From positions 1 through 64,000 of IMG/VR virus record IMGVR_UViG_3300042358_000005: a DNA stretch of 64,000 nucleotides. One strand, written 5' to 3'. The stretch is from a virus (Duplodnaviria; Caudoviricetes). The position numbers and the translations under genes were made by a program. The notes beneath the pieces were generated by a model. It saw only the letters and a program-made list of their open reading frames with translations, ran no database searches and was not told the DNA's origin. This document shows positions 1 through 52,300 of this stretch, one piece after another. Each line of letters begins with the position of its first letter. Positions within the stretch are counted from its first letter, which is position 1.

Positions 1-7
1 CATAATC

Positions 8-127
8 TTATTTGTTTACAGGTTTAGGTGTACATATATGTCCATCACTCCATTTAATTCCTGGAGGTGGTGTTGTTTCTGGTGAGCTGTACTTTGTACC
101 ACACTCACTACATTCAAATTTGTTCAT
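8..127 (-). CDS. Small Zn-ribbon-like protein (39 aa, MNKFECSECG...GHICTP); probable true start 127 rather than 259
   Basis: CxxC and HxC pairs; AT-rich leader before ATG at 127; the 259 start overlaps another ORF. Confidence 0.5.
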   Translation of the reverse strand: MNKFECSECGTKYSSPETTPPPGIKWSDGHICTPKPVNK

Positions 128-189
128 ATTATCTAATTTATTAATTAAAAGAATAAGGGCTCCTATTACAGAGCCCATATATTCCCCCC

Positions 190-336
190 TTAATAACCCA
201 GCTCTTGGAGCTGATTTATATTGGCTTCTACAATATACACACCCTGTGATATTGTACATGCAAATGCAATACTCATTGCAAATGCTAATTGTCTAAACTG
301 ATAAAACTCAGTTGGTTTCATTGTGATTGTTTTCAT
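190..336 (-). CDS. Hypothetical 48-aa protein (MKTITMKPTEFYQFRQLAF...LQELGY), absent from the ORF track
   Basis: Manual translation; preceded by the recurrent TCCTTAATAAC leader motif (344-354). Confidence 0.65.
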   Translation of the reverse strand: MKTITMKPTEFYQFRQLAFAMSIAFACTISQGVYIVEANINQLQELGY

Positions 337-362
337 TTCTATTGTTATTAAGGATTAATAAT

Positions 363-581
363 CTATTGAAAGAATTCTATACTAGTTGGTGTACCAGTTA
401 GTTTCTTATAAATCAATTGAGCTTTTGCTGCACCAATTGCAGTTTTATAAGCTGATAAAGCTCCTTGAGCCACTTTTAAATCTTTTGATGTGTGATATTG
501 ACTTGATAGTACATCACCAATCTCTTGTGTTACTTTGATTACATCTGTAACATTCATTGTTTTAATTTTCTTTGTTGCCAT
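363..581 (-). CDS. Hypothetical 72-aa helical protein, coupled to the upstream HNH-like gene
   Basis: ORF overlaps the end of 562..1344 on the same strand. Confidence 0.7.
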   Translation of the reverse strand: MATKKIKTMNVTDVIKVTQEIGDVLSSQYHTSKDLKVAQGALSAYKTAIGAAKAQLIYKKLTGTPTSIEFFQ

Positions 582-1344
582 GATTTTCTAATTTTCGTTT
601 TAATGTTAGTCTTTTTATTGTTAATTCTTTTAATTCTGGTGTTAATTCTTTAGTTGGTACTTTCACACAATAAGAAATATATGCATCATTAATCTCAAGT
701 GCATTCTTAGTATGTCTTTTTCTCATATATGTATTTAAAGTTTCTCTACGATGTTTAGATTTTCTAGATATAGATTGTTCTAACTTATATTTAGCAAGAC
801 GATCAGGATTTGATTTAATAGTAATCCATGTTTGTTTATGTCTACATTTTTTACATTGATTTGTATATGTTCTTCTTTCACCTTCTCTTATTGCTTTCTT
901 GAAATAAAAAACATTAATATTTTGTATATCTCCACAATTTGAACAACATTTAGATGTTATATCACCTTGGTTATTATAATATGGTTGAGGATAAAAGTTA
1001 ACATCACTCTCACATTTTATTTTCCATTTTAAATTATCTAATGAACAATCTAATACATTATTATTTATATGTTTTAAAGAATAATGATGATGTTCATCTG
1101 GTTGTTTTAACTTAAATGCATTTTTCATCAATGTAACAACAAAGGTTACCTTTGGTAAGTTAGTTTCTGACCATTTATCATATTGTATTTTTACTACACC
1201 ATGAGTACCTTGATTATATATAGATAAGATTGATTTATTGTAATGTTTATTGCCATTATTTAAATATCTATAATGAGAGTAAACTATTCCATCAGATGTA
1301 ATAGAATACCTTTTTTTTGTATCTGGTATAAACTTTTCTTTCAT
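562..1344 (-). CDS. NUMOD4/HNH-like homing endonuclease-type protein with a C-terminal CxxC..CxxC zinc finger
   Basis: RYSITSDGIVYS (NUMOD4-like), HINNNVLDCSLDNLKW (degenerate HNH_3-like), CSNC...CKKC. Confidence 0.6.
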   Translation of the reverse strand: MKEKFIPDTKKRYSITSDGIVYSHYRYLNNGNKHYNKSILSIYNQGTHGVVKIQYDKWSETNLPKVTFVVTLMKNAFKLKQPDEHHHYSLKHINNNVLDCSLDNLKWKIKCESDVNFYPQPYYNNQGDITSKCCSNCGDIQNINVFYFKKAIREGERRTYTNQCKKCRHKQTWITIKSNPDRLAKYKLEQSISRKSKHRRETLNTYMRKRHTKNALEINDAYISYCVKVPTKELTPELKELTIKRLTLKRKLENHGNKEN

Positions 1345-1370
1345 TGTTATTTAGTTATTAAGGATTAATA

Positions 1371-1404
1371 CAAAATAAAAAAGGCTACCATTTCTGATAG
1401 CCTT
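1371..1404 (-). terminator. Intrinsic terminator closing the RNA cluster
   Basis: Minus strand AAGGCTATCA-GAAA-TGGTAGCCTT followed by a T tract. Confidence 0.8.
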
Positions 1405-1540
1405 ATTGTTGAGGTTGGCACTAGTAAAACTCAAACCATAAAGTACTCAACACCTATCTTTGCGTAGATAGGACTTAACATTCGTGATGTGCAAACTACC
1501 CAATGTCTGTTACTGTGCTATTTGCGTCAAGTAACTGCTG
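1405..1540 (-). ncRNA. Candidate small structured RNA (unassigned)
   Basis: No ORF; stems GTTAC/GTAAC, CCTATCT/AGATAGG and TGTTGAG/CTCAACA between the tRNA-like gene and the terminator. Confidence 0.4.
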
Positions 1541-1609
1541 TGATTGAGACAGGATTCGAACCTGTGTGTAAGGATATATGTCCATCGCATGCCACTCTGC
1601 CACTCAATC
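1541..1609 (-). tRNA. tRNA-like gene with degenerate anticodon arm (isotype undetermined)
   Basis: Acceptor GATTGAG/CTCAATC+A, D arm GCA-GAGTGGCA-TGC, T arm ACAGG-TTCGAAT-CCTGT; anticodon arm only GGA-CATATA-TCC (6-nt loop); no encoded CCA. Confidence 0.7.
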
Positions 1610-1770
1610 ATGTTTTACAGTAGGTTATAAGGTACTCGTTAGTTAGACTTTCCCTTATTCCTTTATTAAACCTGTACCAATATTCTTTTTTATTTTCTGA
1701 ATGGAAATTGATAAGACATTCAGGGTAAATACATCTTACAAGAACTACCAAGTTCAACACATTACCTTCG

Positions 1771-2159
1771 TGGAGGTGGGGAGAATCGAACTCCCGTCCA
1801 AAATTAATTTAAATCATTACAATTTATACAGCTTTACGTTTCTTTAAACTCTTTACGTTAGAAGGGTCAACTGTGAAGTTGATATCCACCAGAATGTTTT
1901 TAAGGAATCATACAAACCTTCTATGGCAATTTTAATGTCTTTAGCCAGTGTTTGACAGATTTAATGTCTATGCAGCCATTTCTAGCTCTTCAACATTAGA
2001 ATTAATCAATGAGAAAACTTTGCTCATGTTAGCGTTAACTTGGTCAACATCTAACGAAATTACTTTGTTGTCATTTATTTAATTTCACCTTAGTTTTATA
2101 CAGTTATCTCTCTGTGCTGATTGTAATAATGTATTAACCTGTCAAAACCAGGCACCCCC
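1771..2159 (-). ncRNA. ssrA: tmRNA
   Basis: 5' GGGGGTGCCTGGTTTTGAC; 3' GGGAG-TTCGATT-CTCCC-CACCTCCA; acceptor stem with G3:U70; tag ORF 2072-1968 ending MAA*. Confidence 0.95.
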
Positions 2160-2257
2160 AATTTTGTAGGATATCGCTAAACCTACTATGAATGGCCTAT
2201 TCATATTCACACATTATAGTTGCATTCTAAACGAGAAACTATAGTATACGATTTTTT

Positions 2258-2675
2258 TTAGCACCCATCATTATAGCCTTGCAAGTTAGCCCTCGCTGCT
2301 TACTTAATGATTAGGGTCACGTAGTTGTACTTAAAAGGACTTTCATTAGTTGTTTACCACCAATTACTCTTAACTACTTGCTGAGAACTCATTCGCATCT
2401 TGGTAAATACAACACTTACCTATTTTTAACGTTGCTTGTTTCACCTTTCTCAAGGGGATAATGCGTCTACCATTACTGATAGTATCTTTATGTAAATAAT
2501 ATTTAGACCTTATACTGAACTAATCATGGTAGTATCTAATCTGAATTTACAAAGGTATTCAATGTTTAACCTATAGCTTCACACAGTTTATCAGATCTGG
2601 TGCTTTACACAGCTTAGCTATTTTATCTTTTATATCACTCTAGTGAGTTTTAAACTGACTACACTGATATGAAAC
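2258..2675 (-). ncRNA. Candidate large structured ncRNA (~420 nt, unassigned)
   Basis: ORF-free; many nested helices with G-U pairs on the minus strand and GNRA loops (CTATCA-GTAA-TGGTAG, CCTT-GAGA-AAGG); 3' helix ACCC..ATCATTA/TAATGAT-GGGT; boundaries approximate. Confidence 0.6.
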
Positions 2676-2731
2676 ATAAATATCCCTGCAAATATAATTC
2701 ACAGGGATAAATAAAACAAACAAACCACCAA

Positions 2732-4114
2732 TTATATTTTAATCTCTTGCTCTCCTACACCTTCTGTGTAGCTATAGATTCTCTCATCTTCAGTCACCTT
2801 GATCTGTTTACCACCTGTAGCAAGACATAAGTCTCTCAAATCATTATTGAATTCCATTAATGATACAGCATTCACCTTGTAAGGAAATGCTTCTGTATTA
2901 ATAGGGTCTTCTCCATCATTAATGATTAAGATTTCTGGCTTCTCTTGTGAAAGATCAACAATAAGGTTACATAGTTTATGATTAGCTATCTCATCAGCAA
3001 TGTATTCAACCATCTCAGCAACTTCTGTTCCACCACCATTAGGCTCATTAGAAAATGTTTGCCAAAATCTTATCACCTCTTCTTTATTGGTGATATGTTG
3101 GAAGTGTAACTGTTCTGGATCATGTACAAAGTAACTAAAGAACACTTCAGCTTCACCTCTCATCACATATTTGAACCTGTCTATTAATATAGCATTCACC
3201 CAGATTTGTTTCTGTTCTTCATGCATACTTCCAGAGAAATCTAATATAATGATGATCTTCTGAATCTGTTCTTTTCTATCAACTGGGACATTTACTGTCA
3301 AATCTTTAGTTAAGAACTTAGTTCTGAAGTTAGGAAACATCTTCTGATATAGGTCCATCATGTGCATTTGAGCATAATCTCTCATGATCATTTTAGAATA
3401 CTGATCAGAGTTAGCTACTATTTTCTCAGATATCTCTTTTTCCACCTTGAACTCATTACCAAACTTACCTACAAGAGATAGATGATTCATAATCTCCATC
3501 TTTTTATCCTTACTAAGTTCATTTAGTTCTAATTGTTCATTGATGTTTGGATCAGTGTACAAGCTTCTATCAAATTCTAATCCTTTCTCCATATCTACAT
3601 CATCATCATTACTTCTCTCACCATCTTCATCCTTATTCTGCAATTGCAAATAAATAGCAACAGCTTGTTCAAGAGGTGTGAATCCAGGGATATATTGACC
3701 ATAGATAGAATCAAATAAGTCTTTCTTCTTAGAATATTCAGCTTTGTCTCCATCACTAAGTGTATCAACATCCTTAAATCTATCAGCTAGGTAATCAGAT
3801 TCCTCAATCATCTTAAAATAACACACACGTGCTAGTTCTTTGATCATATCAATGCTCTCTTGCTTCTTAACATATCTAAGTTTCTTCTTGATCTCTTTAG
3901 ATGTTGGTGTGATGTAGTTGATTGGATCTTTAACAAACAAATTGCTATCATCATCTTCATAGTCTACAACAAATGAGTATGTTGACCAGCTATTTCTAGA
4001 CCAACCACCACCACCATATTTGCTCTTCCAACCTCCTGTACTCTTCTTAGGAGTATAGGTTGGGGTATAATAATCACCATAGTAATCATCATCCCATAAA
4101 CTCTTCTGTGTCAT
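2732..4114 (-). CDS. vWA (MIDAS) domain protein, partner of the MoxR ATPase
   Basis: ILDFSGSM (DxSxS), GGGT and IINDGED motifs; directly downstream of the AAA+ gene. Confidence 0.85.
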   Translation of the reverse strand: MTQKSLWDDDYYGDYYTPTYTPKKSTGGWKSKYGGGGWSRNSWSTYSFVVDYEDDDSNLFVKDPINYITPTSKEIKKKLRYVKKQESIDMIKELARVCYFKMIEESDYLADRFKDVDTLSDGDKAEYSKKKDLFDSIYGQYIPGFTPLEQAVAIYLQLQNKDEDGERSNDDDVDMEKGLEFDRSLYTDPNINEQLELNELSKDKKMEIMNHLSLVGKFGNEFKVEKEISEKIVANSDQYSKMIMRDYAQMHMMDLYQKMFPNFRTKFLTKDLTVNVPVDRKEQIQKIIIILDFSGSMHEEQKQIWVNAILIDRFKYVMRGEAEVFFSYFVHDPEQLHFQHITNKEEVIRFWQTFSNEPNGGGTEVAEMVEYIADEIANHKLCNLIVDLSQEKPEILIINDGEDPINTEAFPYKVNAVSLMEFNNDLRDLCLATGGKQIKVTEDERIYSYTEGVGEQEIKI

Positions 4115-5424
4115 TAGATGAATGCAGCTATTTGTAGGTTCTTAGCAAACTTATCTTTAGCTGCTGTAGCAGCTTTAACAAGTTGTGAATGCACATGTGC
4201 AATATCATCACCCACTGTTAATCCTTTGATGTCTGCTAGTTGTTTAGTAAGATCACCAATTGCATCCTTGTACATCTTCTCATCTTCTCTTGTTACCAAT
4301 GGTAAGTGTGTAAGAGTCTCAATACTATAAGTAATAGCTGAAGATAAGTCTCTAAACTTAATAGTAGCCTCGAACTTCTTGATCACTTCAGCAATCAATG
4401 ATGGTTTCTTAGCAAATTCTGCAATGAATCCTAATGATTCAGGACCACATTGATCATACACTTGATATGCTGTAACAGCCACACGAGGTGAAATGGTTAC
4501 ACCATTCTTAGCATATTCTTGTAATAGATAAGGAATCACTGGATCCACATTATCTACACCAAACTTAGATTCTAATAATCTATTGTATGATATCTCTGTG
4601 TAGTTATCCCATATAACATTCAATTCAAGAGGAAATCTTTCCATCAATGCTTTCAATGACATATTCTTAGAGAATTCATCACGAGTTCTATTAGTACAAC
4701 AGATGATGAACTTAGTGTTGATAGGAAATATCTGTGTACCATTTCTGAATACACCAGATGATAATATATCTTTCAATTGCTCTAAGATGAAATCTGGTGC
4801 ATCAAATAGCTCTTCGAACACCACATATTCATGGTTCATGAAACTATTCTCAACTAAATATTCAATCTTACCTGTTGATTCAAATGTTGGTATATCAAGA
4901 CCACCAAACAATCTATCTGTTGTCATACCTGTACCCATCGTAATGATGTAAGGATTGATTCCTTTAGATTGTAAGAAATCTAATGTCATCTCTGACTTAC
5001 CATGTCCACCTGGACCATACAATACAACATTCTTACATGTAGAGAATCCTACGTTTAAAATGTTTGCTGTTTTGTCCATGAATACGAACTTCTCTGTCTT
5101 TGTTGCTTTCTTTGTTGTTGTTTTCATTTTTTTCTTTGTTATTAAGGAATTTTGATTATTTAATTTAATTTGTTCTAAAACTTGTTCTATTGGTATTATT
5201 TCTTCTACTTCTTTAAGTACACAATCATGTGCTTCGAATATCCAACCTTGATGATGAAAGTCTGAATTTGATTCAATGTTTTTGATAAATTTATCAAGAA
5301 CATCTTCTCCCATATATCCATTCATTGATCCTGATTCACACCAGTTGTATGGTGTATCATATTCATCATTCCAATAACCTGTAGCTTTAAACTCTTCTTC
5401 TGTCTTTATTCTATATTTACTCAT
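4114..5424 (-). CDS. MoxR/RavA-like AAA+ ATPase with an extra ~99-aa N-terminal domain
   Basis: Walker A GPGGHGKS, Walker B VVFEE, sensor CTN, ALMERF arginine finger. Confidence 0.85.
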   Translation of the reverse strand: MSKYRIKTEEEFKATGYWNDEYDTPYNWCESGSMNGYMGEDVLDKFIKNIESNSDFHHQGWIFEAHDCVLKEVEEIIPIEQVLEQIKLNNQNSLITKKKMKTTTKKATKTEKFVFMDKTANILNVGFSTCKNVVLYGPGGHGKSEMTLDFLQSKGINPYIITMGTGMTTDRLFGGLDIPTFESTGKIEYLVENSFMNHEYVVFEELFDAPDFILEQLKDILSSGVFRNGTQIFPINTKFIICCTNRTRDEFSKNMSLKALMERFPLELNVIWDNYTEISYNRLLESKFGVDNVDPVIPYLLQEYAKNGVTISPRVAVTAYQVYDQCGPESLGFIAEFAKKPSLIAEVIKKFEATIKFRDLSSAITYSIETLTHLPLVTREDEKMYKDAIGDLTKQLADIKGLTVGDDIAHVHSQLVKAATAAKDKFAKNLQIAAFI

Positions 5425-5435
5425 AGCTTTGATAT

Positions 5436-5461
5436 AAAAAGAGAGCCATTACAGCTCTCTT
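5436..5461 (-). terminator. Intrinsic terminator
   Basis: Minus strand AAGAGAGC-TGTAATG-GCTCTCTT followed by Ts. Confidence 0.7.
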
Positions 5462-5491
5462 GTTAGTTATTCATTAATGATGTCAATTGGA

Positions 5492-5953
5492 TTAGTCTTC
5501 ATCATCATCTTCTTCTTCTTGTTGTTCACGAAGTTCTGATAATCCTTTAACAAGATTCTCTAATGCATCTCTAAGACCTGGAGGAAGAGAATCACCATCA
5601 ATACTCATAGATGATCTACTACCTTTTATCTTGTCTATTAAATCTTTAGGTATACCAGTCATGTCACCTTTCATATATTTCTCTAATGCTTGTTCTTCCA
5701 TTGATTCTATCTTATCTCTAAGATAAAAACCTGCAAGAATAACTAATTGAGAATAACTATACTCATGTAAGGCAGCTTCAATCATTTGACTAGCTGTACA
5801 ATCTTTCATGTTCTTATTCTCTTCATCCACTTTAAGTTCAAAGATGATATCTTTGGTCTTAGAGTTTAAATCATCCATATAGGATTCATTCACACCTAAT
5901 GCTTTATTGATCTTTTCTTGTGTGTGATCAAATGTAAAAATTGCTGTACTCAT
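5492..5953 (-). CDS. Hypothetical protein with acidic C-terminus
   Basis: 153-aa ORF with the leader motif abutting the ATG. Confidence 0.8.
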   Translation of the reverse strand: MSTAIFTFDHTQEKINKALGVNESYMDDLNSKTKDIIFELKVDEENKNMKDCTASQMIEAALHEYSYSQLVILAGFYLRDKIESMEEQALEKYMKGDMTGIPKDLIDKIKGSRSSMSIDGDSLPPGLRDALENLVKGLSELREQQEEEDDDED

Positions 5954-5965
5954 GTTATTAAGGAA

Positions 5966-6121
5966 TTATTGGTTTAACGTTTGTCTAACATCTATTGTTC
6001 TTTCTATTACAATTCCTCTTCTGAAATTATATATCACTTCAATGATCAACCTCTTAGATAGAATATGTCTATATGTATTGGTTGATGCTACTAATGTACC
6101 TCTGCTCACTCTAGTTCTCAT
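5966..6121 (-). CDS. Small basic hypothetical protein (probable start MRTRVSRG at 6121)
   Basis: ATGA overlap with the stop of 6118..6351. Confidence 0.55.
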   Translation of the reverse strand: MRTRVSRGTLVASTNTYRHILSKRLIIEVIYNFRRGIVIERTIDVRQTLNQ

Positions 6122-6351
6122 AGACAATGTATTATAATCATTGATAATAGATGTAATGCCACTAATGAATAGAAACATATCTTAAGCATTCTGTTTTCTT
6201 TCTTATAGATATTGATTAATCTATCAGCTATGTCTAATCTAGCATCTTTTAGTTTAAACAGCTCATCAGCTGTTTCTAATGCTTGTTGTTGCATATCTAT
6301 TAACTCATTCATTGAGTTTAATGCATCGTCTAAATTTCTTTCTTTTGCCAT
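6118..6351 (-). CDS. Coiled-coil protein with a C-terminal TM helix
   Basis: Heptad-like N-terminus, hydrophobic tail, leader motif at 6359-6369. Confidence 0.7.
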   Translation of the reverse strand: MAKERNLDDALNSMNELIDMQQQALETADELFKLKDARLDIADRLINIYKKENRMLKICFYSLVALHLLSMIIIHCL

Positions 6352-6369
6352 TGTGTTTGTTATTAAGGA

Positions 6370-6471
6370 TTAATCTTTAAATATTTTCTTTCCAAAGTAT
6401 AGAAATACTCTAGCTACAAGTAACCATAAGACTATGCTTATGATTACCTTCGCTATAAATTCCACTACCAT
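6370..6471 (-). CDS. 33-aa single-TM microprotein (MVVEFIAKVIISIVLWLLVARVFLYFGKKIFKD)
   Basis: Manual translation; TAATG coupling to the upstream ORF. Confidence 0.55.
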   Translation of the reverse strand: MVVEFIAKVIISIVLWLLVARVFLYFGKKIFKD

Positions 6472-6629
6472 TATTTCTTACCTATCATCATACCAATAAG
6501 AATTGGTAATACTATTGGACTAAAGATGTATGATGCTATTGCATAACCTTTCATATCATCTATCTTCTCGTAACTCTCTATCATCACACCTAGCATAACT
6601 AGATATGATATTATAATGTATGTTATCAT
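6471..6629 (-). CDS. 52-aa two-TM membrane microprotein (MITYIIISYLVMLG...ILIGMMIGKK)
   Basis: Manual translation; start overlaps the stop of 6629..6820. Confidence 0.6.
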   Translation of the reverse strand: MITYIIISYLVMLGVMIESYEKIDDMKGYAIASYIFSPIVLPILIGMMIGKK

Positions 6630-6820
6630 CATAATCCAATAAGATTATCAAAACAACTCTCTAACAAGAATGTTAGGTTTTGTCTCTCGTGATATAATAC
6701 ATCTAATTGCTCTTCAATGATATGAATGTTCGTATCATCATGTGCATCTCTTAAACTATCTAATGAATGTATTTCATTCTTAATAGTCTGTAATCTTTGT
6801 TCAATCATTTCTGTTCTCAT
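6629..6820 (-). CDS. Small coiled-coil hypothetical protein
   Basis: 63-aa ORF with leader motif at 6829-6839. Confidence 0.7.
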   Translation of the reverse strand: MRTEMIEQRLQTIKNEIHSLDSLRDAHDDTNIHIIEEQLDVLYHERQNLTFLLESCFDNLIGL

Positions 6821-6851
6821 TTTTGTTTGTTATTAAGGAGTTATTATATTA

Positions 6852-7232
6852 TTAGGCAGAGAGTCTTCTCTGCCATATTTCTCTAAACGCTTCTATCTCA
6901 TCAGATGTAAACCACATACTGTCTGTATTCATCACATTCTTACCAATCCACCAAGAATGTTGATTAAATACATCATATAGATTATCTATCTCTTGTTGTT
7001 TGTAATACTCTAACTCATTAAGATGATCAGACCATTCATCAATAGACCAATATTCATCATCACAACCATCATAATACTCTTGTGTATCATATGCTTCTTC
7101 TTTATGAATATATATAGATAACAACTCTTCACAAAGATCTCTTTGTCCTAATGTCCATTCATATCCTGGCATATCAAGATCTTCTAACCAAATATTAAAT
7201 TGTTTAAGCTTAGCTTCTAATATTTCTTTCAT
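6852..7232 (-). CDS. Acidic, aromatic-rich hypothetical protein
   Basis: 126-aa ORF with the leader motif abutting the ATG. Confidence 0.75.
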   Translation of the reverse strand: MKEILEAKLKQFNIWLEDLDMPGYEWTLGQRDLCEELLSIYIHKEEAYDTQEYYDGCDDEYWSIDEWSDHLNELEYYKQQEIDNLYDVFNQHSWWIGKNVMNTDSMWFTSDEIEAFREIWQRRLSA

Positions 7233-7248
7233 ATTATTAAGGAGTTTT

Positions 7249-7270
7249 AAAAAGGCCCTAAGAAGAGCCC
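7249..7270 (-). terminator. Intrinsic terminator
   Basis: Minus strand GGCTCT-TCTT-AGGGCC-TTTTT. Confidence 0.6.
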
Positions 7271-7277
7271 ATTATTA

Positions 7278-7496
7278 TTATACCAAACTATTTGCCTGAA
7301 TAGAACCTATTAATGTCCCAAGAGACAATACATCTTCTAATGAAGGAGTGTAATCCATTTCAATAGATAGAATAACAGATGTAATAGATGTAGATTCAAT
7401 ACTACATTTATGATTAGGAATAGAGTTTAATATATCAATTATATTATCTACACTCTTAATGTACAATAGTCCTACTGTGTGCTTTAATATTGTCAT
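7278..7496 (-). CDS. Hypothetical protein (probable start MTILKH at 7496)
   Basis: C-terminal part of track ORF 7278..7589; the upstream part is low-complexity. Confidence 0.5.
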   Translation of the reverse strand: MTILKHTVGLLYIKSVDNIIDILNSIPNHKCSIESTSITSVILSIEMDYTPSLEDVLSLGTLIGSIQANSLV

Positions 7497-7767
7497 AATG
7501 CTATATATATTATTTATGTTGTATGTATTGTTGTATGTTGTTTTGTATGCCATTTTAGTGTCTATGTCTCCACTGCTAAGTATAAACACACATAAAAAGT
7601 TTAAACTATTTTTAAGTTATACTTGATTATCAAGCATTTAACTAAATAAAAGTTTATTTCTCCCTCGTAAAAAGTTTTTATACCTATATATATAGGTAAA
7701 GATTCGTTTGATTAGTTATTACCCAACCAAACGATTCTCTCCCACCCCTTATATGAACCAATAGTGC

Positions 7768-8133
7768 TTAAAGCACTATCAATTCATCATCAGTAATAGC
7801 AACTTCAACAAGTGCTTTAATGGTAAGCTTAGCAGTATCATGCCAAACAAGACTTCTTTCTTCATTATGGATAGAGTATAATCCATCAGATGATTTAGAT
7901 AATGGATAGTTTAACAAAGTGCCCAATGAGATTTGTTTAGTTCTCAATAACTTTGATAATGGCATAGATACAATTGCAGTCTCCACTTTACCACTAGCAG
8001 TCTTAACTTTCAAGTAAACTTGTTTTTCATTATCCATTAAGTTGATTGCATCAGTTGCAATAGTTTTACCGCTAACTCCTGATAAATCACTTAATACTCC
8101 TACTCTTTCAAATGTTTTTTCTGTTGTATTCAT
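7768..8133 (-). CDS. Hypothetical protein, first gene of the leftward block
   Basis: 121-aa ORF with an A-rich Bacteroidota-type leader. Confidence 0.75.
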   Translation of the reverse strand: MNTTEKTFERVGVLSDLSGVSGKTIATDAINLMDNEKQVYLKVKTASGKVETAIVSMPLSKLLRTKQISLGTLLNYPLSKSSDGLYSIHNEERSLVWHDTAKLTIKALVEVAITDDELIVL

Positions 8134-43794: not shown

Positions 43795-46395
43795 ATGGCT
43801 TCATACACAGACACAGTTCCTAAGTTCAACCCCTACGTGAAACAATTACCTATTGAGGCAATGGCTGAAGTGGGTATGTACAAACAACAGAAGTACGACG
43901 AAGGAATACAGAAAATACAAACAAACATTGATAACATCGCTGGACTTGATGTTGTTAGAGATGTAGATAAAGCATATCTACAATCTAAACTTAACCAACT
44001 TGGTAATAACCTTACCACAGTTGCAGCTGGTGATTTCTCTAATTTTCAATTGGTTAATTCTGTTAATGGAATGACTAATCAGATATCTAAAGATCCTAAT
44101 GTATTAAATGCAATATCATCTGCTAAGACTTATAGAAAAGGATTAGAAGATATGGCTGCTGCTAATAAAGATGGTAAAGGATCAGCATCTAACGATTGGT
44201 TGTTTAGAACTGATGCTAGTGGTTGGTTAGATAGTCAAGATGTAAAAAAATCTTTCAGTGGTGGATATAAGCCATATACTAATTACTCAAAGAATGCATT
44301 AGAGGTTATTAAATCATTAGCTAAGAATGAGACCAACAGAGATGTTGCTATTGAAACTGATGCCAATGGTAACACTGTTGTATTAGATGCCATTACACGT
44401 ACAAAGATTGCTGGTATAACTCCTGAGAGAATACAGTCAGCATTGATGGTAGGTCTTAGTCCTAATGACTTTCAACAAATGCAGATTGATGGTAGATACA
44501 ATTATTCAAGTGCATCTCCTGAACAGTTTGTTTCTGATATAAATAAATCATATAAAACTGATTACGATAAATATAAACAACAAAGAGATATATTAGCCAA
44601 CTCTATAGATTCAACTAATTCAGTTCTTGTAAAAAGAAAACTGCAGGAACAAGTTGCTTCATTAGATAAATCATTAAATGGTATATCCTCTGAGTATGGA
44701 AATATAACTAAGTCATTTGCTACTGGTGATGTAGAATCTGCTAAGGCTAGATTACATACTACCAAATGGATGAATAACTTCTCACAAACATTTGCAAATC
44801 AAGAAACATCTCAGACATACGAAAGTAGTCCATTCCAACAAGTTAAACAGTTTAAAGAAACTAAGAAACAAGATTGGAACAAATTTATATTAGGTTATAA
44901 CCAAGATGAAAGGTTTCATCAAGATGATGAGCATTGGAAATCAGAAGCTAATAAATTAGCTGTAAAAAAAGAAGCAAGAGAAGCTGCTGGAGAAGCAGGA
45001 TATGGAGGAGTTCCTTTTTCTGTAGATCAATCTACACTTCCAGAAGTAACATTGGATAAACTTAGAACTGATATAGCTGCTGATGAAATTAATATTGATA
45101 AAGCTGACACTGCTATAATGAAACAGTTTGGTAAAGCTGGCAATGCTGAATGGTTAGATCAACAATTAAAAGCATGGCAAAACTCTCCAGGATCTGTTGA
45201 CCCTTTACTTGCAGCTCATTTTAATAGAACAGCAAGTACAAAAAGAGATATTTTAACTAACTCAGCTATGATAACTGACATTAGTAAACAAGCTGATGAT
45301 GCGTATGGTGAAGTGTATGATAATATTCCTGCTGGTTCTAAACCTGTAACTATTAATTTTCCTAGTGGTTCTTATACATACACACCTAGAGAAATGGTTG
45401 ATTTTAATGATAAAGTTAAAAGATATCAAAAAGTTACTTCTGGTGGTTCATATGGTCCAGGTGGTGGTGCTCCTACAATATCTTATGATGATGCAAAAGC
45501 AAAGTCAGAACTTTCTGCTAAAGAATATTATTTATATAAAGCACAGAAAGAACAAAAAAGTCCTACGCAAAAAACACTTATGGACAATTTAAGATATTAT
45601 AACACCAATGTAAATATGCCATTCCAAAAAACTATAAGAGATAAAAATGATTTTGTAGCAGGTGAAGTTAAATCAAGAATAATGGCAATGCAAGGAGCAG
45701 AGTATGGAGTGGCATTAAATAATGAAGCACAAAAAACTTCATTTGGAAATGCTCTTCAGGGGATGGCAGATCTTGCAGATAAACAAGGAGGAAAATTACC
45801 ATATTCTCCAGAAATGAATACATCAACATTAAGAGAGATAGCAGCAGATGTTCAGAATGCAAATGTAAGAATTGTTGAAGGAACTAGATATGCTCCTGCA
45901 ACATATGAAATTACAGCAGCAACTAAAGGAGGAACTACACAAACGTTTAGAGTTCCTGCAGAAGTATATAGATCTGTGTTTGGAAATAGATTTGAAGCTG
46001 ATCCTGCTATACAAGCAGCTCGTCCTATATTAAATCAAATGATTAGAACAGGAGCTGGAACCACAGCTATTGATGGAGGAGTGACAACACCTGCAAATTC
46101 TTTCTTAGGAAATTTAGATTTTCCAAATAGACAATATTATGGAGTTTCAGGAAATGTTGTACAAGACCAATCTAGTGGACTATATTCTGTTAGAATAAAT
46201 TTAACTGACCCTATCACTAAAGAAATAGTAGTTAAAAATCTTGCTTATCCAAGCGGAGGACTTATTGAAGAAAATAAAATAGCTCCTGCTCTTCAAGGCT
46301 TAACAGATTCTAAAATATTTCAAATGATATATAATAGAAATCCAACAGCTAAAGAATTAGAATTAATAAAACAAGGATCACAAAACCCACAATAA
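43795..46395 (+). CDS. Large virion cargo protein preceding the vRNAP
   Basis: 866 aa; FNPYVKQLP..KQQKYD N-terminus; position. Confidence 0.65.
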   Translation: MASYTDTVPKFNPYVKQLPIEAMAEVGMYKQQKYDEGIQKIQTNIDNIAGLDVVRDVDKAYLQSKLNQLGNNLTTVAAGDFSNFQLVNSVNGMTNQISKDPNVLNAISSAKTYRKGLEDMAAANKDGKGSASNDWLFRTDASGWLDSQDVKKSFSGGYKPYTNYSKNALEVIKSLAKNETNRDVAIETDANGNTVVLDAITRTKIAGITPERIQSALMVGLSPNDFQQMQIDGRYNYSSASPEQFVSDINKSYKTDYDKYKQQRDILANSIDSTNSVLVKRKLQEQVASLDKSLNGISSEYGNITKSFATGDVESAKARLHTTKWMNNFSQTFANQETSQTYESSPFQQVKQFKETKKQDWNKFILGYNQDERFHQDDEHWKSEANKLAVKKEAREAAGEAGYGGVPFSVDQSTLPEVTLDKLRTDIAADEINIDKADTAIMKQFGKAGNAEWLDQQLKAWQNSPGSVDPLLAAHFNRTASTKRDILTNSAMITDISKQADDAYGEVYDNIPAGSKPVTINFPSGSYTYTPREMVDFNDKVKRYQKVTSGGSYGPGGGAPTISYDDAKAKSELSAKEYYLYKAQKEQKSPTQKTLMDNLRYYNTNVNMPFQKTIRDKNDFVAGEVKSRIMAMQGAEYGVALNNEAQKTSFGNALQGMADLADKQGGKLPYSPEMNTSTLREIAADVQNANVRIVEGTRYAPATYEITAATKGGTTQTFRVPAEVYRSVFGNRFEADPAIQAARPILNQMIRTGAGTTAIDGGVTTPANSFLGNLDFPNRQYYGVSGNVVQDQSSGLYSVRINLTDPITKEIVVKNLAYPSGGLIEENKIAPALQGLTDSKIFQMIYNRNPTAKELELIKQGSQNPQ

Positions 46396-49300
46396 TGGCA
46401 GAAAATAATCTAGAATCAAAAGACATTGCTCAAGCTGGAAAAGAACTAGGTCCTGTACCTACGCACTTAGATGTTCAGACACCATTGTTGGATAGACTTG
46501 ATCTTGAAAACCAATTTGGTGGATATGAGGCACCTAGTGCTCCATCACCTTTACCTACATATAGTAGTCCAGAGAATGTATATGAAGCTCCAACTATATT
46601 GTCTTCAGATAGACAAGAGGAAGGAGAATCTTTAAAATCACTTGAGAATTTCTTACTTACTAAAAGTGATACTAAACCAGGAGGAAGTATAACTAGAACT
46701 CTTGCTGAAGTGTCATCTAATAGATATGATAACTTTGTTCCTGGAGATTATAATAATGAGGATGCATATGCACAAGGACAAGGGTTTGGATCAAAGATGG
46801 TTAATGGTGTAGGTAAAGGACTTTTGCTTACTGGTACAACTTTCCTACAAGGTACAGTTGGACTTGTCAATGGATTAGCTAGATGGGGATCAGATGGTAG
46901 ATTTGCATCATTCTATGATAATGAATTTAATAGAAACTTAGATGATATAAATAAGAAAGCAGAAGATGCTCTTCCAAACTTCTATACAGATAGAGAAAAG
47001 AATGGCAAGTGGTATTCTCCTGATTACTTTATGACAGGTAACTTCTTATGGGATGGTATCGTTAAGAATATGGGATTTGCTGCTGGTGCTTATTTAACTG
47101 GAGGAGTTTACTCAGCTGGATTAAAAGGACTTGCTTCACTTCCAGGTGCTTCAAGATTATTATCTATGGGTAGAGCAGCTGAGGCTGTTGCTGCATCAGA
47201 AGAAGCATTGATAGGACTTGATAAAGGTTCTGAAGCTTATGGTAAAATAAAAGCATTATCTGATTCATATTTAAAACAATATCAAATTCTTGACAAAGGA
47301 CATAGAGCTGTTGTAGCTGGTTTGTCTACAAGTGGAGAAGCTGGATTTGAAGCATATCAGAATCTTAATGATTTTAGAAATCAAAAGATAGAAGAATATA
47401 AAAATTTAAATGGTGGTGTAGCTCCACAAGGAGCAGATCTTGCAAAGATAAATGCATTAGCTGATGGTGTTGGTAACTCTTCGTTTGCAGCAAATGTTGC
47501 ATTGCTTAGTGCTACTAACTACATTCAATTTCCAAAGATCTTAGGATCTTCTTACAGTGCTGAGAAAGGAATAATGAATAATGTAACTAGAGAGATAGGA
47601 GACATTACAGAAGTTGCTGGTAAGTATGCTGCAAAAGAAGGTAAGAGTAAACTATTAAATACTTTCAATACAGTTAGACCGTACCTATTCTCTACATCTG
47701 AAGGATTTGAAGAGGGAGCACAGTATGCAATACAGATGGGTGTTAAAGATTATTATAATAAAAAATATAATAATGTTGCCACTGATTGGTTAGATGCTGT
47801 ATCTACTGGTATTACTGAAACTGTTGGTACAGATGAAGGAGCTAAGAATATTCTTATTGGTGGATTGTCTGGTGCATTAATGATGGCCAAAGGTACATAT
47901 AAACAAGGAAGAGAAGAATCTGCAAACACAGCTAAAGCTATTGAGCAATTCAATCAATTCAGATTATCGGACTTTACAAAAGAAACAATTGATTCTGTTA
48001 ATAGAGGAACTGTTCTTCAACAAGAAAGAGAAAAACTTTTGAAAGAAGGTAATATCTCTGATAGTAAAGATAAAGAAACAGACTACATAATTAACTACCT
48101 AACTCCTCGTATTAAGTTTGGTAGATTTGATCTTGTAACCTCAGAGATTGCTGATTATAGAGCACTAGCTAGTTCAAAAACTGGATTTGATCAATTAGTT
48201 GAAGATGGGAAAGCTCTTCCTACAGATACAAGAGAAGCATACTTAGCTAGATTAAATAGCTTTGAACAAACAGCTAATAATGTAAAATCATTATATCAAT
48301 CTCTTAACTTACGCTATGGAGCAAAGGTTAATGCAGAGGGTAAACAATTGTACACTCCTGCTGTAGTTGATAAAATGATATATGCTGCAACTAAGATTTC
48401 AGACTATGAACAAAGAATACCAGGTTTATCTACTAAGCTTATTACTAATGTTGATAATGTAAGTCAAATTCTTCAAGATGTTTCTGAAGGTAATCTAGAT
48501 TCTTTCAATGGTGCTATGTCTAAACTTGAAGGAAGTAAACTTGTTAATAAAGAAGATTTAATTGAAGCATTAGATGATGCTGCATATATGACTATGAAGA
48601 GAGATATTCTATTAAAAGAATATGACTCAATGAAAAAGTCTCCTGAAAATTTTCAAGAACAAACACAATCATTCGAAGAAATACAAGCAGACGCTGCATC
48701 TAAGGAAAAGATTAAAGTTAATACTAAGAATGGTGAAAGAGAAGTTGAGATAGGTACAGAGTATGTACTTGGAAAAGTGACTGAATACTCTGCAGGTGGT
48801 AGAGAAGTTTATCGTCAACCTAGACTTACTATATTAGCTAAGAATGAAGATGGTACTATCAAGATCAAAACTTCTAATGGAGTTATCAAAGATATTAGTG
48901 AAGATGAGTTGAATAGTTATAGTCTTACGCCAGCTAGCAAGATGCTTACTGATAAGAAGTTTAACTACTTTGAGAAACATCAGAACACTGTTTTCCAACA
49001 CTATGGTATTAAGAAAAAGAATGGTGATCCTGTACAAGGTAGATTAGAATACAATGACAAGAAAGGTAAGCTTACATTTGTATATGTAGATGAGAATGGT
49101 GAAGTGCAAAAAGAAGAAGTTTGGAATACATTGTTCAAAGCTCAAGGAGAGTATAAATATCCTATGATTAGACGTCTTGGTAATCTTACTGCTGCACAAG
49201 ATAAAGCTCAATTAGAATTTGAAAATACTGAGACTACTGTATCAGATAAACTTCAAACAAGAAATAGAATCATTAGAGATCTTTATGAAACCAGTGTTAA

Positions 49301-52300
49301 ACGTCTTGATGAAATAAACAAGAAGTTAAACAATAGTAAAGCATCTCTTGAGAAAGAACAATTACGTTTAGAAAATGAAATATCTAAAGAGAGTGTAACT
49401 AAAACAGGAGCATTACGTAAGAGACCTACTACCACTCTTAAACAATTAACTAATACGTTGGGTAACCTACGTAGTGTTGTTGAAAAAGAAAATAAAGCAT
49501 TGTTATCAGAGAAACAAGAATTAGAAGCATCTATTCCTTATTTTAAAGAATTCTTAGATAGTCTTAGTACTCTTCCAGAAGCTGGAGCTAAGATGATTAA
49601 ACAAATTAAAGATGACATCAATGCATTAGAAGAACTTATTGATATAACTAATGATGCAATTGTTGCAAGTGATAAGTTATTAAAACAAATAGATGACTTG
49701 CTACAAAAAGCATTGTCTATATTTGATGACTATCTTACAAGATTAAAAGAAGAGAATCCTAACACTCCATTGTTTATTGAACAATTAAAAGAAAATATAG
49801 AAAAATATCTAGGTGAAGAAGGAGCAAGAATGTTTGTTGAAGATAGATTAGGATTCACTGAGAAAGTATTAGAATTAGAATCTGATATCAATGACTTTTC
49901 AGCTGAATTAAAAATTCCTGAATTGTCTAAGAAAGCAGATAGACTTGTTGAAGATATAAAAGAACTTAGAGAAGGACTTGATAATCTTATCAATGAGCAA
50001 ATAGCAAAAGGTAAGATCTTGGATACATTCCAACAGTTTGCAGAAGATGAGAAAGCAAGAGAGGCTGAAGAAAAACAGATGCGTGACAATGAAGCATTAA
50101 AAAAATCTTTCCTTGGTACGCTTACTAATTCTGTACAAAACTTCTTTGGTACAAGACCATATGAAGCTGCTAGCAAAAAGACTGATCTTGGTGTAGTAGG
50201 TAGTACAAAACCAACTAAAGATGAAATTCCTCACCAAGAGAGAGTGAACTTCTTTGGTAATAAGATTGATTCATTTGAAAACAAAGATCAACTTAAAGGA
50301 GTGATTGTTACAGCTAATACTGAGAATGAAATAATTGCAGGACTTACAGAAGATTTTCTTAAAGATATGCCAGAGGGTCCTAAGAAAGATAAAGCTAGAG
50401 AAGAGATTATATTTCTTGTAATGGTGCAAGATAATAATGATAATAGTTTCTCTGTAGTGGATCAAACTGGACAACCTATACTTGAAGATGAGAATAAAAT
50501 AAACAATGCTATTTATCAAGTGTTTCCATCTGCTGATCTTATGGGAGAATACGATGGTGTAAAATCATCTATGTTTAGAGAAGGTATCAATGATGTATTA
50601 AAAGAATCTCTAACAAATCAATATGTTGAATGGAGAGCTGAACAATTAGATAAACCAACATTAGGAGATGCACAGTCTGTATCTGCTTCATTTGGTCAAC
50701 CAAAACTTGTTACATATAAAGATCAAGCAGGAAATGATATTGTTGACAAAGGAGCAAGAACTTCTGCACAAGCTGCAGGACTTGTAACTCAATCAGGTCT
50801 TAGAAAAAATCCTATAGTAGAAGTTGCTGTTACTAATGAATCTGTATCTGAAGGATCTGTAACATTTGAATCTCCTACAGGTAGAGTATTCTTAAGATTA
50901 CCAGGAAGAGGACTAGCTAAATTATTCAATAGAAAGTTTAACGATAAAGAAGCTAATACAATATTTGATGTAATGCATCAAATCACAAAGAATGCTTTAA
51001 GGGATGGTGAGATAAATGATAGTTCTAAAGAATTATTCAATTGGTTAAAATCTGTAACCTATTGGGGTATAGCTAAGTATCCTGATGGAAAAAGAAAAGC
51101 TGCAGGTTATAACAACATTTGGTTTGAAAAAGATGGTGAAGGAGTTTTAAGACTATTCATGTCAGGATTAAATAAAGATTCTAAGAAAGCATTTGAATTC
51201 ACTCCTACAGGAATGCAGGACAATAAAGAAGCTATTGTAATGTTATTGAAAGAGATGTATAATAATACAGACTCTGTAAAAGTTAATGGTGATGGTTGGA
51301 GTAATCCATATTATGAAATTACAAATATTGATAGTGAAGGAAATCCTGTAACAAGAGAATGGCCTAACTACCAAACTTATTTATTATCAGATAAAGCTCC
51401 TGATGCTAATGGTAAACTATCTATAGATAGAACTAATAAAGAACTTCCATTAGCTACACAATTCAGACCTATTACAGAAAGTCAACCTATCAATAGAGAA
51501 GGAATTTATTTTTCATTAGATGATTCAGGTTCAAGATTTAAAAAACCTCAACCAGTTGCTATAGTTGAACAGCCAGTTGTTGCACCAGCTGCAATCACTG
51601 TACCAGCAACTAAGGAATTTAATGATGATGGTGAAACACCAAATACAATAGTTCATGATACGTATGGTGATATAGTTTTCACTTTAGATAAAGAAGGTGA
51701 AGTAAAACTAGATCTAGAAGGATCAACTAATGCAATTGTTGAACTAGCAAAAAAGAAAACTGCTACTGGATCATCACAAGAAGAAGCTGAAAACTGGGCT
51801 GGTGTAAATTTAGTTAAATCTATAAAGAGTAAACTAAGTGTACCTGCTGTAGTGACCACTGTTGAACCAGCAATTGAATTTAATAACACAACACCTGTTG
51901 TAATAAATAATGACTTAGGAACGATTGTATACACTGCTGATAAAGATGGTAAGGTTACATTAGATTTAGAAGAATCTGCGGATGCTATTATGAAATTAGC
52001 TGAAACTAAAGTGGGTCCAACAATGACTCAAGAAGAAGCAGAAAATTGGGCAGGAGTTAACTTAACTAAATCTATTGAAAAGAAAATAGCTGGACAGTTA
52101 GTTCAACAACAAGTTCCAGTTCTTCCTCCAGTTGCTGATGTAGCTCCTATAATAGAAGCTCCTGTGCAAACAGAAGAAATAATAGAAGAAGCTCCTAAAG
52201 CAATAGAAGAAGGAGATGTTGATTGGAATACACCTGCTAAACCTAAAGGTAAAAAGAAATTATACAGACTACAAGTGTTAGATCAAGTTAGTAAAATAAC

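Follow-up and report, generated by a model that had tools for sequence, protein, structure and literature searches.

The stretch of DNA analysed here (the window) comprises the first 64 kb of the 118.9-kb IMG/VR virus record IMGVR_UViG_3300042358_000005. The terminase of this phage is most similar to those of Leptolyngbya, Cellulophaga, Flavobacterium and crAss-like phages, and its DNA has been found repeatedly in lake-water metagenomes. Near the left end of the window, an ORF-free gap between a protein gene and a tmRNA gene holds a gene for a structured non-coding RNA, present in a single copy across the 118.9-kb genome (model R1, see below). The features of the region, in minus-strand order, are:

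4114–5424, minus strand: MoxR-type ATPase gene (Pfam bpMoxR and AAA_5)
2732–4114, minus strand: gene for a 460-aa protein without a family
2160–2731: gap of 572 nt without an ORF of at least 30 aa
2684–2706, minus strand: terminator-like hairpin CCCTG...CAGGG past the 460-aa gene, read from the sequence and kept in relatives
2632–2670, minus strand: palindromic hairpin HP-A, ATATCA...TGATAT, outside the RNA family
2573–2621, minus strand: accessory hairpin HP-B, AUAGCU...AGCUAU, directly abutting helix H0 of the RNA
2257–2572, minus strand: structured non-coding RNA gene of 316 nt, from H0 to the 3' tail GCUAAA
2160–2256, minus strand: spacer of 97 nt between the RNA and the tmRNA
1768–2159, minus strand: phage tmRNA gene (Rfam 73.1 bits, gathering score 47)
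1541–1609, minus strand: odd tRNA (ARAGORN / Rfam)
562–1344, minus strand: HNH endonuclease gene

The RNA, the tmRNA and the tRNA share the minus strand, and the tag peptide of the tmRNA ends ...EELEMAA (ARAGORN). An earlier note on this DNA had read the span 2258–2675 as a single structured RNA of about 420 nt on the minus strand, lying in an ORF-free stretch beside the tmRNA. The setting was correctly described: 2160–2731 lacks any ORF of at least 30 aa, and the tmRNA lies just downstream on the same strand. A recoded ORF in the gap is excluded as well, because each of the six frames of 2160–2731 carries 11–21 stops and holds TAA, TAG and TGA, which leaves no rescue by stop recoding. The length was overestimated, as the conserved RNA is the 316 nt at 2257–2572 and the first ~100 nt of the longer span are two separate hairpins. 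One is HP-A (ATATCA/TGATAT), formerly counted as part of the RNA; it is kept at all related loci, including those without the RNA (L004, L005 and L008), and matches in either orientation. The other is HP-B (TAGCT/AGCTA), also assigned to the RNA before, which is common to few loci only (L002, L003, L009, L020, L022, L028 and L035). A single inner pair of HP-B covaries (CAG/CUG to CGG/CCG in L028), and the position it occupies in the window is taken by the 3' end of a tRNA at other loci. Further upstream, TATATTTG (2689–2696) lies in the loop of the terminator-like hairpin; it might be read as a promoter -7 box, a motif without family-wide enrichment. The spacer on the other side of the RNA shows about 96% identity in L003 and L009. 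It is missing from L002, where the tmRNA begins 6 nt past GCUAA.

Conserved architecture and covariation

Two exact-pattern scans of IMG/VR, designed from conserved blocks, returned 40 and 53 stretches. About 85 phage contigs of IMG/VR carry a member of the family, as does Cellulophaga phage phi14:2. The carrier contigs span 4 to 373 kb and the RNA is frequently found within tRNA arrays, so the family is not confined to one phage group. Members are 221–430 nt in length, and throughout the family blocks B1–B6 keep their order and the variable inserts their positions. The ordered blocks are the UAAACAUUGA loop, UAAAGAUA, the GNRA hairpin, the CUUGAGAAA loop, AAUGAGUUCUCAGC, GUGACCC and GGGUGCUAA, and every one of them occurs in the window at 2257–2572, in order and with 0–2 mismatches each. 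The core of ~150 nt consists of seven covarying helices (H0, the H1 closing stem, H2, H3, H4, H6 and H7), four peripheral hairpins that vary, and single-stranded loops and junctions that are nearly invariant; the letters of the core are conserved as strongly as those of ribozymes or ribosome-binding RNAs. The parts of the RNA in the window are:

2553–2572, minus strand: H0, stem AGGU/ACCU closing the loop UAAACAUUGAAU (2557–2568)
2491–2551, minus strand: H1, variable hairpin with the conserved closing stem UGUAAAU/AUUUACA
2483–2490, minus strand: J1/2, conserved single strand UAAAGAUA
2467–2482, minus strand: H2, CUAUCA-GUAA-UGGUAG, a 6-bp stem with a GNRA tetraloop
2394–2465, minus strand: H3, long-range helix CGCAUU (2460–2465) / GAUGCG (2394–2399), enclosing H4 and H5
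2442–2458, minus strand: H4, short stem with the invariant 9-nt loop CUUGAGAAA (2446–2454)
2402–2420, minus strand: H5, variable hairpin GGUAAGUG-UUG-UAUUUACC, seen in the minimum free energy (MFE) and constrained folds
2383–2393, minus strand: junction strand AAUGAGUUCUC, invariant or nearly so in all alignments
2260–2382, minus strand: 3' domain, a three-way junction closed by P8 and carrying H6 and H7
2380–2382 and 2260–2262, minus strand: P8, AGC / GCU
2321–2377, minus strand: H6
2263–2317, minus strand: H7

The structure was assessed on a MAFFT alignment of 33 members that had not been fitted to any structure. RNAalifold predicted H2, H3, P8, H6 and H7 from this alignment unaided. When the full structure was laid over it, 95.0% of the cells were paired, as against 36–50% with slid partners, and 32 pairs were changed on both sides, as against 10.9 ± 2.3 after shuffling (a value of 32 was reached in none of 500 shuffles); compensated cells numbered 89, compared with 14 in shuffles. 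Two covariance models, both built without the window, gave the same picture. Model R1, which covers the H2-H3-H4-junction core and was built from 36 members, aligns 87 matches; among their 75 distinct sequences all 17 pairs are compensated, 97.5% of the cells are paired, and there are 166 compensated cells compared with 21 in shuffles. Model R2, for the 3' domain, aligns 76 matches, and over these 76 sequences 95.4% of the cells are paired (35–55% when slid) and 12 of the 22 pairs are compensated (3.6 in shuffles). Across the tests, the slid-partner controls were 30–58% paired. In the window, R1 matches over its full length at 2380–2494 (78.8 bits, E about 6e-15) and R2 at 2257–2393 (80.4 bits, E about 1e-18), both E-values being rough as they come from a short calibration. 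The models match on the minus strand only, and in 44 of 75 sequences H2 has a U-G pair that would be A-C if read on the opposite strand, both of which bear out the strand originally proposed. Compensatory changes are thus present far above the shuffled and slid controls.

Folding energy gave a different result. The earlier note had described the span as folding almost end to end, but the MFE of 2258–2675 (-90.9 kcal/mol) has a z-score of only -1.46, with 7 of 100 shuffles folding equally well, and for the family-defined interval 2257–2574 the z-score is -0.48 and 32 of 100 shuffles do as well. The plus-strand fold (z = -0.96) is likewise indistinguishable from shuffles. By their energies alone, the helices could therefore be chance pairings in non-functional spacer DNA. 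This reading retains practically no probability, and is refuted by the comparative data: exact blocks of 24 to 39 nt recur in dozens of phage contigs that are otherwise unrelated, and neither the shuffles nor the slid controls approach the 32 compensated pairs. The structured RNA gene at 2257–2572 is real, and belongs to an uncatalogued non-coding RNA family.

Most of the pairings first noticed in the DNA correspond to helices that covary across the family: GTAAAT/ATTTAC is the H1 closing stem, CTATCA-GTAA-TGGTAG is H2, CGCATT/GATGCG is H3, GTAGTT/AACTAC is H6 and ACCC..ATCATTA/TAATGAT..GGGT is H7. Two others, GGTAAGTG/TATTTACC (H5) and TTAGAT/GTCTAA (within H1), fall at the sites of the family's variable hairpins. 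The proposed GNRA hairpin CCTT-GAGA-AAGG was placed in the wrong register, since covariation backs an outer 4-bp stem and the 9-nt loop CUUGAGAAA of H4. According to the mapping of alignment columns to the window, the window sequence can form H0, the H1 closing stem, H2, H3, H6 and H7.

The H0 stem appears as GUCG/CGAC, CAGC/GCUG, CUC/GAG or AGC/GCU in other members, and all 33 sequences compared have the same letters at loop positions AAACAUUGA. All seven pairs of the H1 closing stem change on both sides, and the insert above it varies from 24 to 123 nt across the family. H2 is compensated at six of six pairs (75 distinct sequences) and its loop is GUAA, GUGA, GAGA or GAAA, while H3 is compensated at seven of seven with 99.4% of cells paired; in the window H3 reads CGCAU/AUGCG where the consensus is UGUGUUG/CAACACA. 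The outer stem of H4 changes from the consensus UUCC/GGAA to UUGC/GCAA, CAAC/GUUG, CAC/GUG and others, with four of four pairs compensated. It is weak in the window, where two of the four pairs form. The H5 site is a variable insert of 33–93 nt family-wide. H6 is missing entirely from six members. The changes seen in P8 are A-U to G-U only and this helix is plausible; after its GCU strand the RNA ends in the tail AA(A).

The junction AAUGAGUUCUC is complementary to two loops, that of H0 (CAUU:AAUG) and that of H4 (UGAGAA:UUCUCA), and two pseudoknots are inferred from this. They are put no more strongly than this because the paired positions do not vary; uncompensated mismatches in the UGAGAA:UUCUCA pairing occur in L007 and L055.

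Genomic context and distribution

Genes related to that of the 460-aa protein are present at eleven loci, and the intervals between this gene and the tmRNA are modular. The terminator-like hairpin and the palindrome corresponding to 2632–2670 are present in all of the intervals compared. The stretch 2258–2622 is found in L002, L003, L007, L010 and L011. It is split in L006 by an inserted 179-aa HNH_3 gene, which lies in the H5 loop, and is replaced by a tRNA-like piece in L009. In L004, L005 and L008 the RNA is missing and the tmRNA comes right after the hairpin. Aligned intervals show conserved blocks with unalignable hairpins between them, and compensatory changes are visible. Elsewhere in the family, L014 carries an HNH endonuclease gene inside the RNA gene, at the junction, and L093 has two tandem copies of the RNA. 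The HNH insertions, together with presence or absence among relatives, indicate a conserved but dispensable cassette.

Features of this kind might point to a mobile ribozyme-type element, degenerate or novel, which splices or cleaves itself and travels with homing endonucleases. HNH genes are inserted in L006 and L014, the former in the H5 loop much as endonuclease ORFs are looped out from peripheral hairpins of group I introns, and a contig from a lake RNA library has 679 extra letters in the same H3-H5 region; the distribution among close relatives is patchy, and an invariant pseudoknotted core is ribozyme-like. This origin is nevertheless highly improbable. Rfam returned no match to group I or group II introns or to self-cleaving ribozymes, there is no recognisable P7/G-binding core, and, unlike endonuclease-bearing group I introns, the RNA has no conserved exon context. 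Its 5' flank varies by locus (a tRNA, HP-B, a terminator hairpin or an SPFH gene), which leaves no exons that could be joined. Endonucleases, moreover, target any highly conserved DNA, an RNA gene included.

Nearby tRNA and tmRNA genes are all co-oriented with the RNA. Among the 53 unique contexts, a tmRNA lies within 1.3 kb downstream in about 10, and a tRNA or tmRNA is nearby in about one-third. For about two-thirds of the loci, no canonical tRNA or tmRNA was found within the surrounding DNA examined, which makes the link to the tRNA apparatus one of context and not an obligatory one. Where such genes are present they can be very close: a tRNA-type 3' end lies 1–4 nt before H0 in at least 11 loci, and in L002, L062, L013 and L050 a tmRNA or tRNA begins 4–9 nt past GCUAA. 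A terminator-like site within 90 nt downstream was detected at only 5 of 67 loci, and an upstream Bacteroidota-type promoter box (TAnnTTTG) at 8 of 66, compared with 4.2 ± 1.9 expected, which is no convincing enrichment. The scarcity of terminators and the lack of promoter enrichment fit maturation by processing.

Clustering of 1192 neighbouring ORFs revealed no RNA-related partner protein recurring beside the RNA. The commonest neighbour clusters are a 250-aa protein without a family (17 loci), the MoxR ATPase and the 460-aa protein, and further common ones are SPFH, a PolB-type exonuclease and a SNF2 helicase. The energy of whole-length duplexes between the RNA and the tmRNA, calculated for 11 loci, was no better than with shuffled tmRNA, although this is a crude test.

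A two-block pattern searched among 185,579 species genomes was found in 2 MAG contigs only, one binned as Sphingobacteriales and the other as an archaeon, and R1 had no match in 150 further genomes sampled from the phylum of the first. The family is essentially missing from cellular genomes, i.e. it is phage-only. Neither the region in the window nor positions 1–8000 had a sequence match in 50,697 GenBank phage records. When a consensus-like family member was used as the BLASTn query against GenBank phages, phi14:2 alone was detected.

The copy in Cellulophaga phage phi14:2 and its expression

Phage phi14:2 (NC_021806), which belongs to the Crassvirales, carries all of the ordered blocks at about 2911–3361, at the g004–g005 junction. 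Models R1 (75.4 bits at 3102–3205) and R2 (98.8 bits at 3192–3360) both match this copy, in which the covarying H4 stem is CAC/GUG and H2 is GGA-GUGA-UCC. Searched against Rfam, it returned noise only. A second region of the phi14:2 genome holds a tmRNA at 4031–4502 (46.0 bits, gathering score 47, E 2.6e-16) that is unannotated in RefSeq; g005 itself can be inferred from the RefSeq table to be the removed feature at 3590–3910. The RNA has the same orientation as in the window and the tmRNA lies downstream, and the order is therefore the same in both phages: RNA, then tmRNA. The two loci differ in dimensions, the phi14:2 copy being longer (~450 nt, with an H1 of ~190 nt, compared with 316 nt for the RNA of the window) and further from its tmRNA (~670 nt compared with 97 nt).

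Both regions have previously been noticed as transcripts. At the g004–g005 and g005–g006 junctions of phi14:2, rightward transcription exceeds that of most protein genes, and the junction transcripts, already there at the first time point, show no drop later on (bioRxiv 10.1101/2020.03.07.982082). Drobysheva et al. do not identify these RNAs or describe a family or structure for them, and left the role of the phi14:2 non-coding RNAs to be determined (bioRxiv 10.1101/2020.03.07.982082). Judged by its sequence, the abundant long non-coding RNA of the g004–g005 junction is a member of the family described here. Both of the unexplained non-coding regions of phi14:2 are now identified, one as a member of this RNA family and the other as a tmRNA. 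The function of the RNA is directly testable, because this member sits in a culturable pair (phi14:2 and Cellulophaga baltica) for which published data place it with the most abundant transcripts.

Contigs of lake RNA libraries from several studies also contain family blocks and tmRNA blocks. They derive from relatives, and one spans the element and the 5' end of the tmRNA. As evidence of expression they are weak, because such libraries can contain DNA. In the four RNA libraries compared, no contig matched the flanking protein gene or 2165–2266, an absence that carries no weight in either direction.

It is very unlikely that the element acts in cis, as a 5' leader of the tmRNA precursor with control over the folding, processing or expression of the tmRNA, and has no function of its own. 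Such a role would suit the window and the roughly 10 of 53 contexts in which the RNA is co-oriented with, and upstream of, a tmRNA (immediately so in the window, and at 6–9 nt in L002 and L062), as well as the RNA-library contig that bridges the two and the gene order of phi14:2. Most members, however, have no downstream tmRNA and lie within tRNA arrays or before unrelated protein genes, the loci L004, L005 and L008 retain the tmRNA without the element, and in phi14:2 the two genes lie ~670 nt apart.

The early and lasting abundance of the phi14:2 transcript might instead point to an anti-defence decoy, an RNA that mimics tRNA-like or other host RNA and soaks up a host nuclease or sensor whose action would abort the infection. 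Counter-defence genes are typically accessory cassettes that some close relatives have and others lack, as is the case here, the RNA is co-resident with phage tRNA genes, and its 3' strand AGGGUGCU stacks H7 on P8 in one continuous helix with a free tail, loosely like an acceptor/T-arm stack. Yet no tRNA or tmRNA model (Rfam clan CL00001, ARAGORN) matches any part of the element, the only matches being to the tRNA at 1541–1609 and the tmRNA at 1768–2159. The invariant loops are also unlike any known nuclease target tested, and no defence or anti-defence genes were identified nearby, so a decoy is considered quite unlikely.

Relation to known RNAs and proposed role

GOLLD and ROOL are large, ornate, phage- or prophage-encoded RNAs listed in Rfam that are commonly found beside tRNA genes and combine a conserved core with variable peripheral stems. 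The earlier note had proposed a divergent relative of these RNAs, or alternatively a new large RNA of crAss-like phages. Proximity to tRNA genes is seen here too, but this is a shared context without a sign of homology. No GOLLD or ROOL match was obtained at the gathering threshold across the whole window, and a permissive cmscan of 1400–2800 against all 4227 Rfam 15 families, with E-values up to 10, gave only noise over the element (lysM-TM7, 16.9 bits, cut-off 61.5). No Rfam 15 family therefore matches it. At 221–430 nt, the members are also much smaller than GOLLD and ROOL (roughly 600–800 nt) and have different helices and motifs. The RNA family is not GOLLD or ROOL. The alternative proposal is essentially right: the RNA covaries, is uncatalogued and occurs in phi14:2 as well as in the present phage, with its terminase close to those of Cellulophaga, Flavobacterium and crAss-like phages, but it is medium-sized and belongs to more than one phage group.

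Cryo-EM shows ROOL and GOLLD as cage or ring multimers. ROOL, GOLLD and OLE are reported to form homo-oligomers (PMC12286853). The present RNA occupies the same niche, being phage-encoded and beside tRNA genes with variable peripheral stems around an invariant core; it has no recurrent protein neighbour, and tandem copies exist, as in L093. It might accordingly be a self-assembling cage or ring that, without a protein partner, encapsulates or scaffolds something during infection. This is unlikely, as the RNA resembles neither GOLLD nor ROOL in sequence or by model and is two to three times smaller, and no self-complementary conserved loop was seen that could make kissing contacts.

Another precedent comes from phage T4, the tRNA cluster of which includes RNAs C and D (species 1 and 2), small stable non-tRNA RNAs of ~120–140 nt that are freed from the cluster transcript by tRNA-processing nucleases. 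They resemble the present family by description, and homology with them is unlikely. Beside GOLLD, ROOL and the T4 RNAs, the family represents a distinct, smaller and more tractable class, carried by roughly a hundred uncultured phages on contigs that range from small ones to 373 kb.

The reading favoured here is that 2257–2572 probably, though by no means certainly, encodes a stable structured RNA that acts in trans, belongs to a phage-only family without an Rfam entry and binds the translation apparatus through its core. The RNA would be transcribed jointly with the tmRNA and tRNA genes, and its ends cut by host enzymes that process tRNA precursors: RNase Z or RNase E would act at the 5' side, and RNase P, by cutting at the 5' end of the next tRNA or tmRNA, would free the 3' side. 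Co-transcription and release by tRNA-processing nucleases are suggested because tRNA and tmRNA genes abut the RNA while terminators and promoter boxes are rare. Within the mature RNA, the H0 loop, the H4 loop and the 3' tail would clamp the junction AAUGAG-UUCUC-AGC, giving a compact core with pseudoknots. This core may be the working surface: while the phage infects its host, it would bind a conserved part of the tRNA and translation apparatus, of either host or phage origin.

A more specific and rather doubtful suggestion is that the double-pseudoknot core, in which the 3' tail and the loops UAAACAUUGAAU and CUUGAGAAA hold the junction, could be a new ribozyme active site or a module that docks to tRNA or the ribosome. 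On that view, phages of Bacteroidota-type hosts would carry a new RNA machine that acts directly on the host's tRNA pool or ribosomes, already in the first minutes of infection. U-N-N-N-A pentamers form T-loop modules in T-box and RNase P, both of which bind the tRNA elbow. Pentamers of this type are present in both of the conserved loops, as UUGAA and UGAGA.

The tmRNA of phi14:2 and the small RNA genes of the window

In Cellulophaga phage phi14:2 (L094, NC_021806), the g005–g006 gap contains a full-length match to tmRNA (nt 4031–4502, plus strand; 46.0 bits, E = 2.6e-16), a score that falls slightly short of the Rfam tmRNA cut-off of 47, and the RefSeq record carries no annotation at this position. 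The second abundant non-coding RNA of phi14:2 was left unexplained by Drobysheva et al. (bioRxiv 10.1101/2020.03.07.982082) and is probably this tmRNA. The window carries the following genes of this kind:

1768–2159, minus strand: phage tmRNA with a long predicted tag, VDQVNANMSKVFSLINSNVEELEMAA
1541–1609, minus strand: tRNA gene whose anticodon loop is abnormal, detected by ARAGORN and Rfam

The 3' end of the window tmRNA is encoded in the genome as ACGA rather than ACCA, and the tag sequences diverge widely among the relatives. The tRNA gene was returned by ARAGORN as 'tRNA-???', with no anticodon that could be named and 'ta' at position 32; in the Rfam match, which scored 46.7 bits, the loop is shortened. 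The gene may specify a suppressor tRNA, a frameshifting tRNA or a tRNA-like RNA.

Elements upstream of the structured RNA

Three elements were distinguished in the region upstream of the structured RNA (2257–2572, minus strand) and in related loci:

2573–2621, minus strand: HP-B, a two-hairpin element with the closing pair AUAGCU/AGCUAU, also present in L020, L022, L028 and L035
2632–2670: palindromic hairpin ATATCA...TGATAT with perfect arms, 94–98% conserved in all related loci
L009, 1235–1333: tRNA-like element of ~95 nt, its 3' end formed by a T-arm and GUCCUGACUAC

HP-B adjoins the 5' end of the RNA at the exact position occupied in other loci by the 3' end of a tRNA, and could be the vestige of a tRNA or serve as a signal for processing. 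The palindrome is kept even in related loci that lack the RNA, and could serve as a terminator, operator or processing site. The tRNA-like element, which gave no ARAGORN call, stands in place of the RNA in L009 and lies immediately upstream of it in L013, L017, L037 and L089.

Insertions, tandem copies and neighbouring genes

HNH homing-endonuclease genes interrupt the RNA gene at two distinct sites, the loop of the variable hairpin H5 (L006, 7902–8441) and the invariant junction (L014, 3821–4217), the latter insertion being flanked by a near-duplication of GAGUUCU. The minus strand of contig L093 carries the RNA core twice in tandem, at 885–1039 (46.7 bits) and 1246–1361 (84.1 bits), as scored with R1, the covariance model of the core built without the window.

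Protein genes of the window include:

2732–5424, minus strand: MoxR-type AAA ATPase followed by a 460-aa protein
46,395–59,381, plus strand: single ORF of 4328 aa

The first pair is kept in 10–11 related loci, some of which have an SPFH/Band-7 gene inserted after it; the 460-aa protein matched no Pfam or PHROG family. Virion proteins of the giant size of the 4328-aa product are typical of crAss-like phages, and include the virion RNA polymerase.
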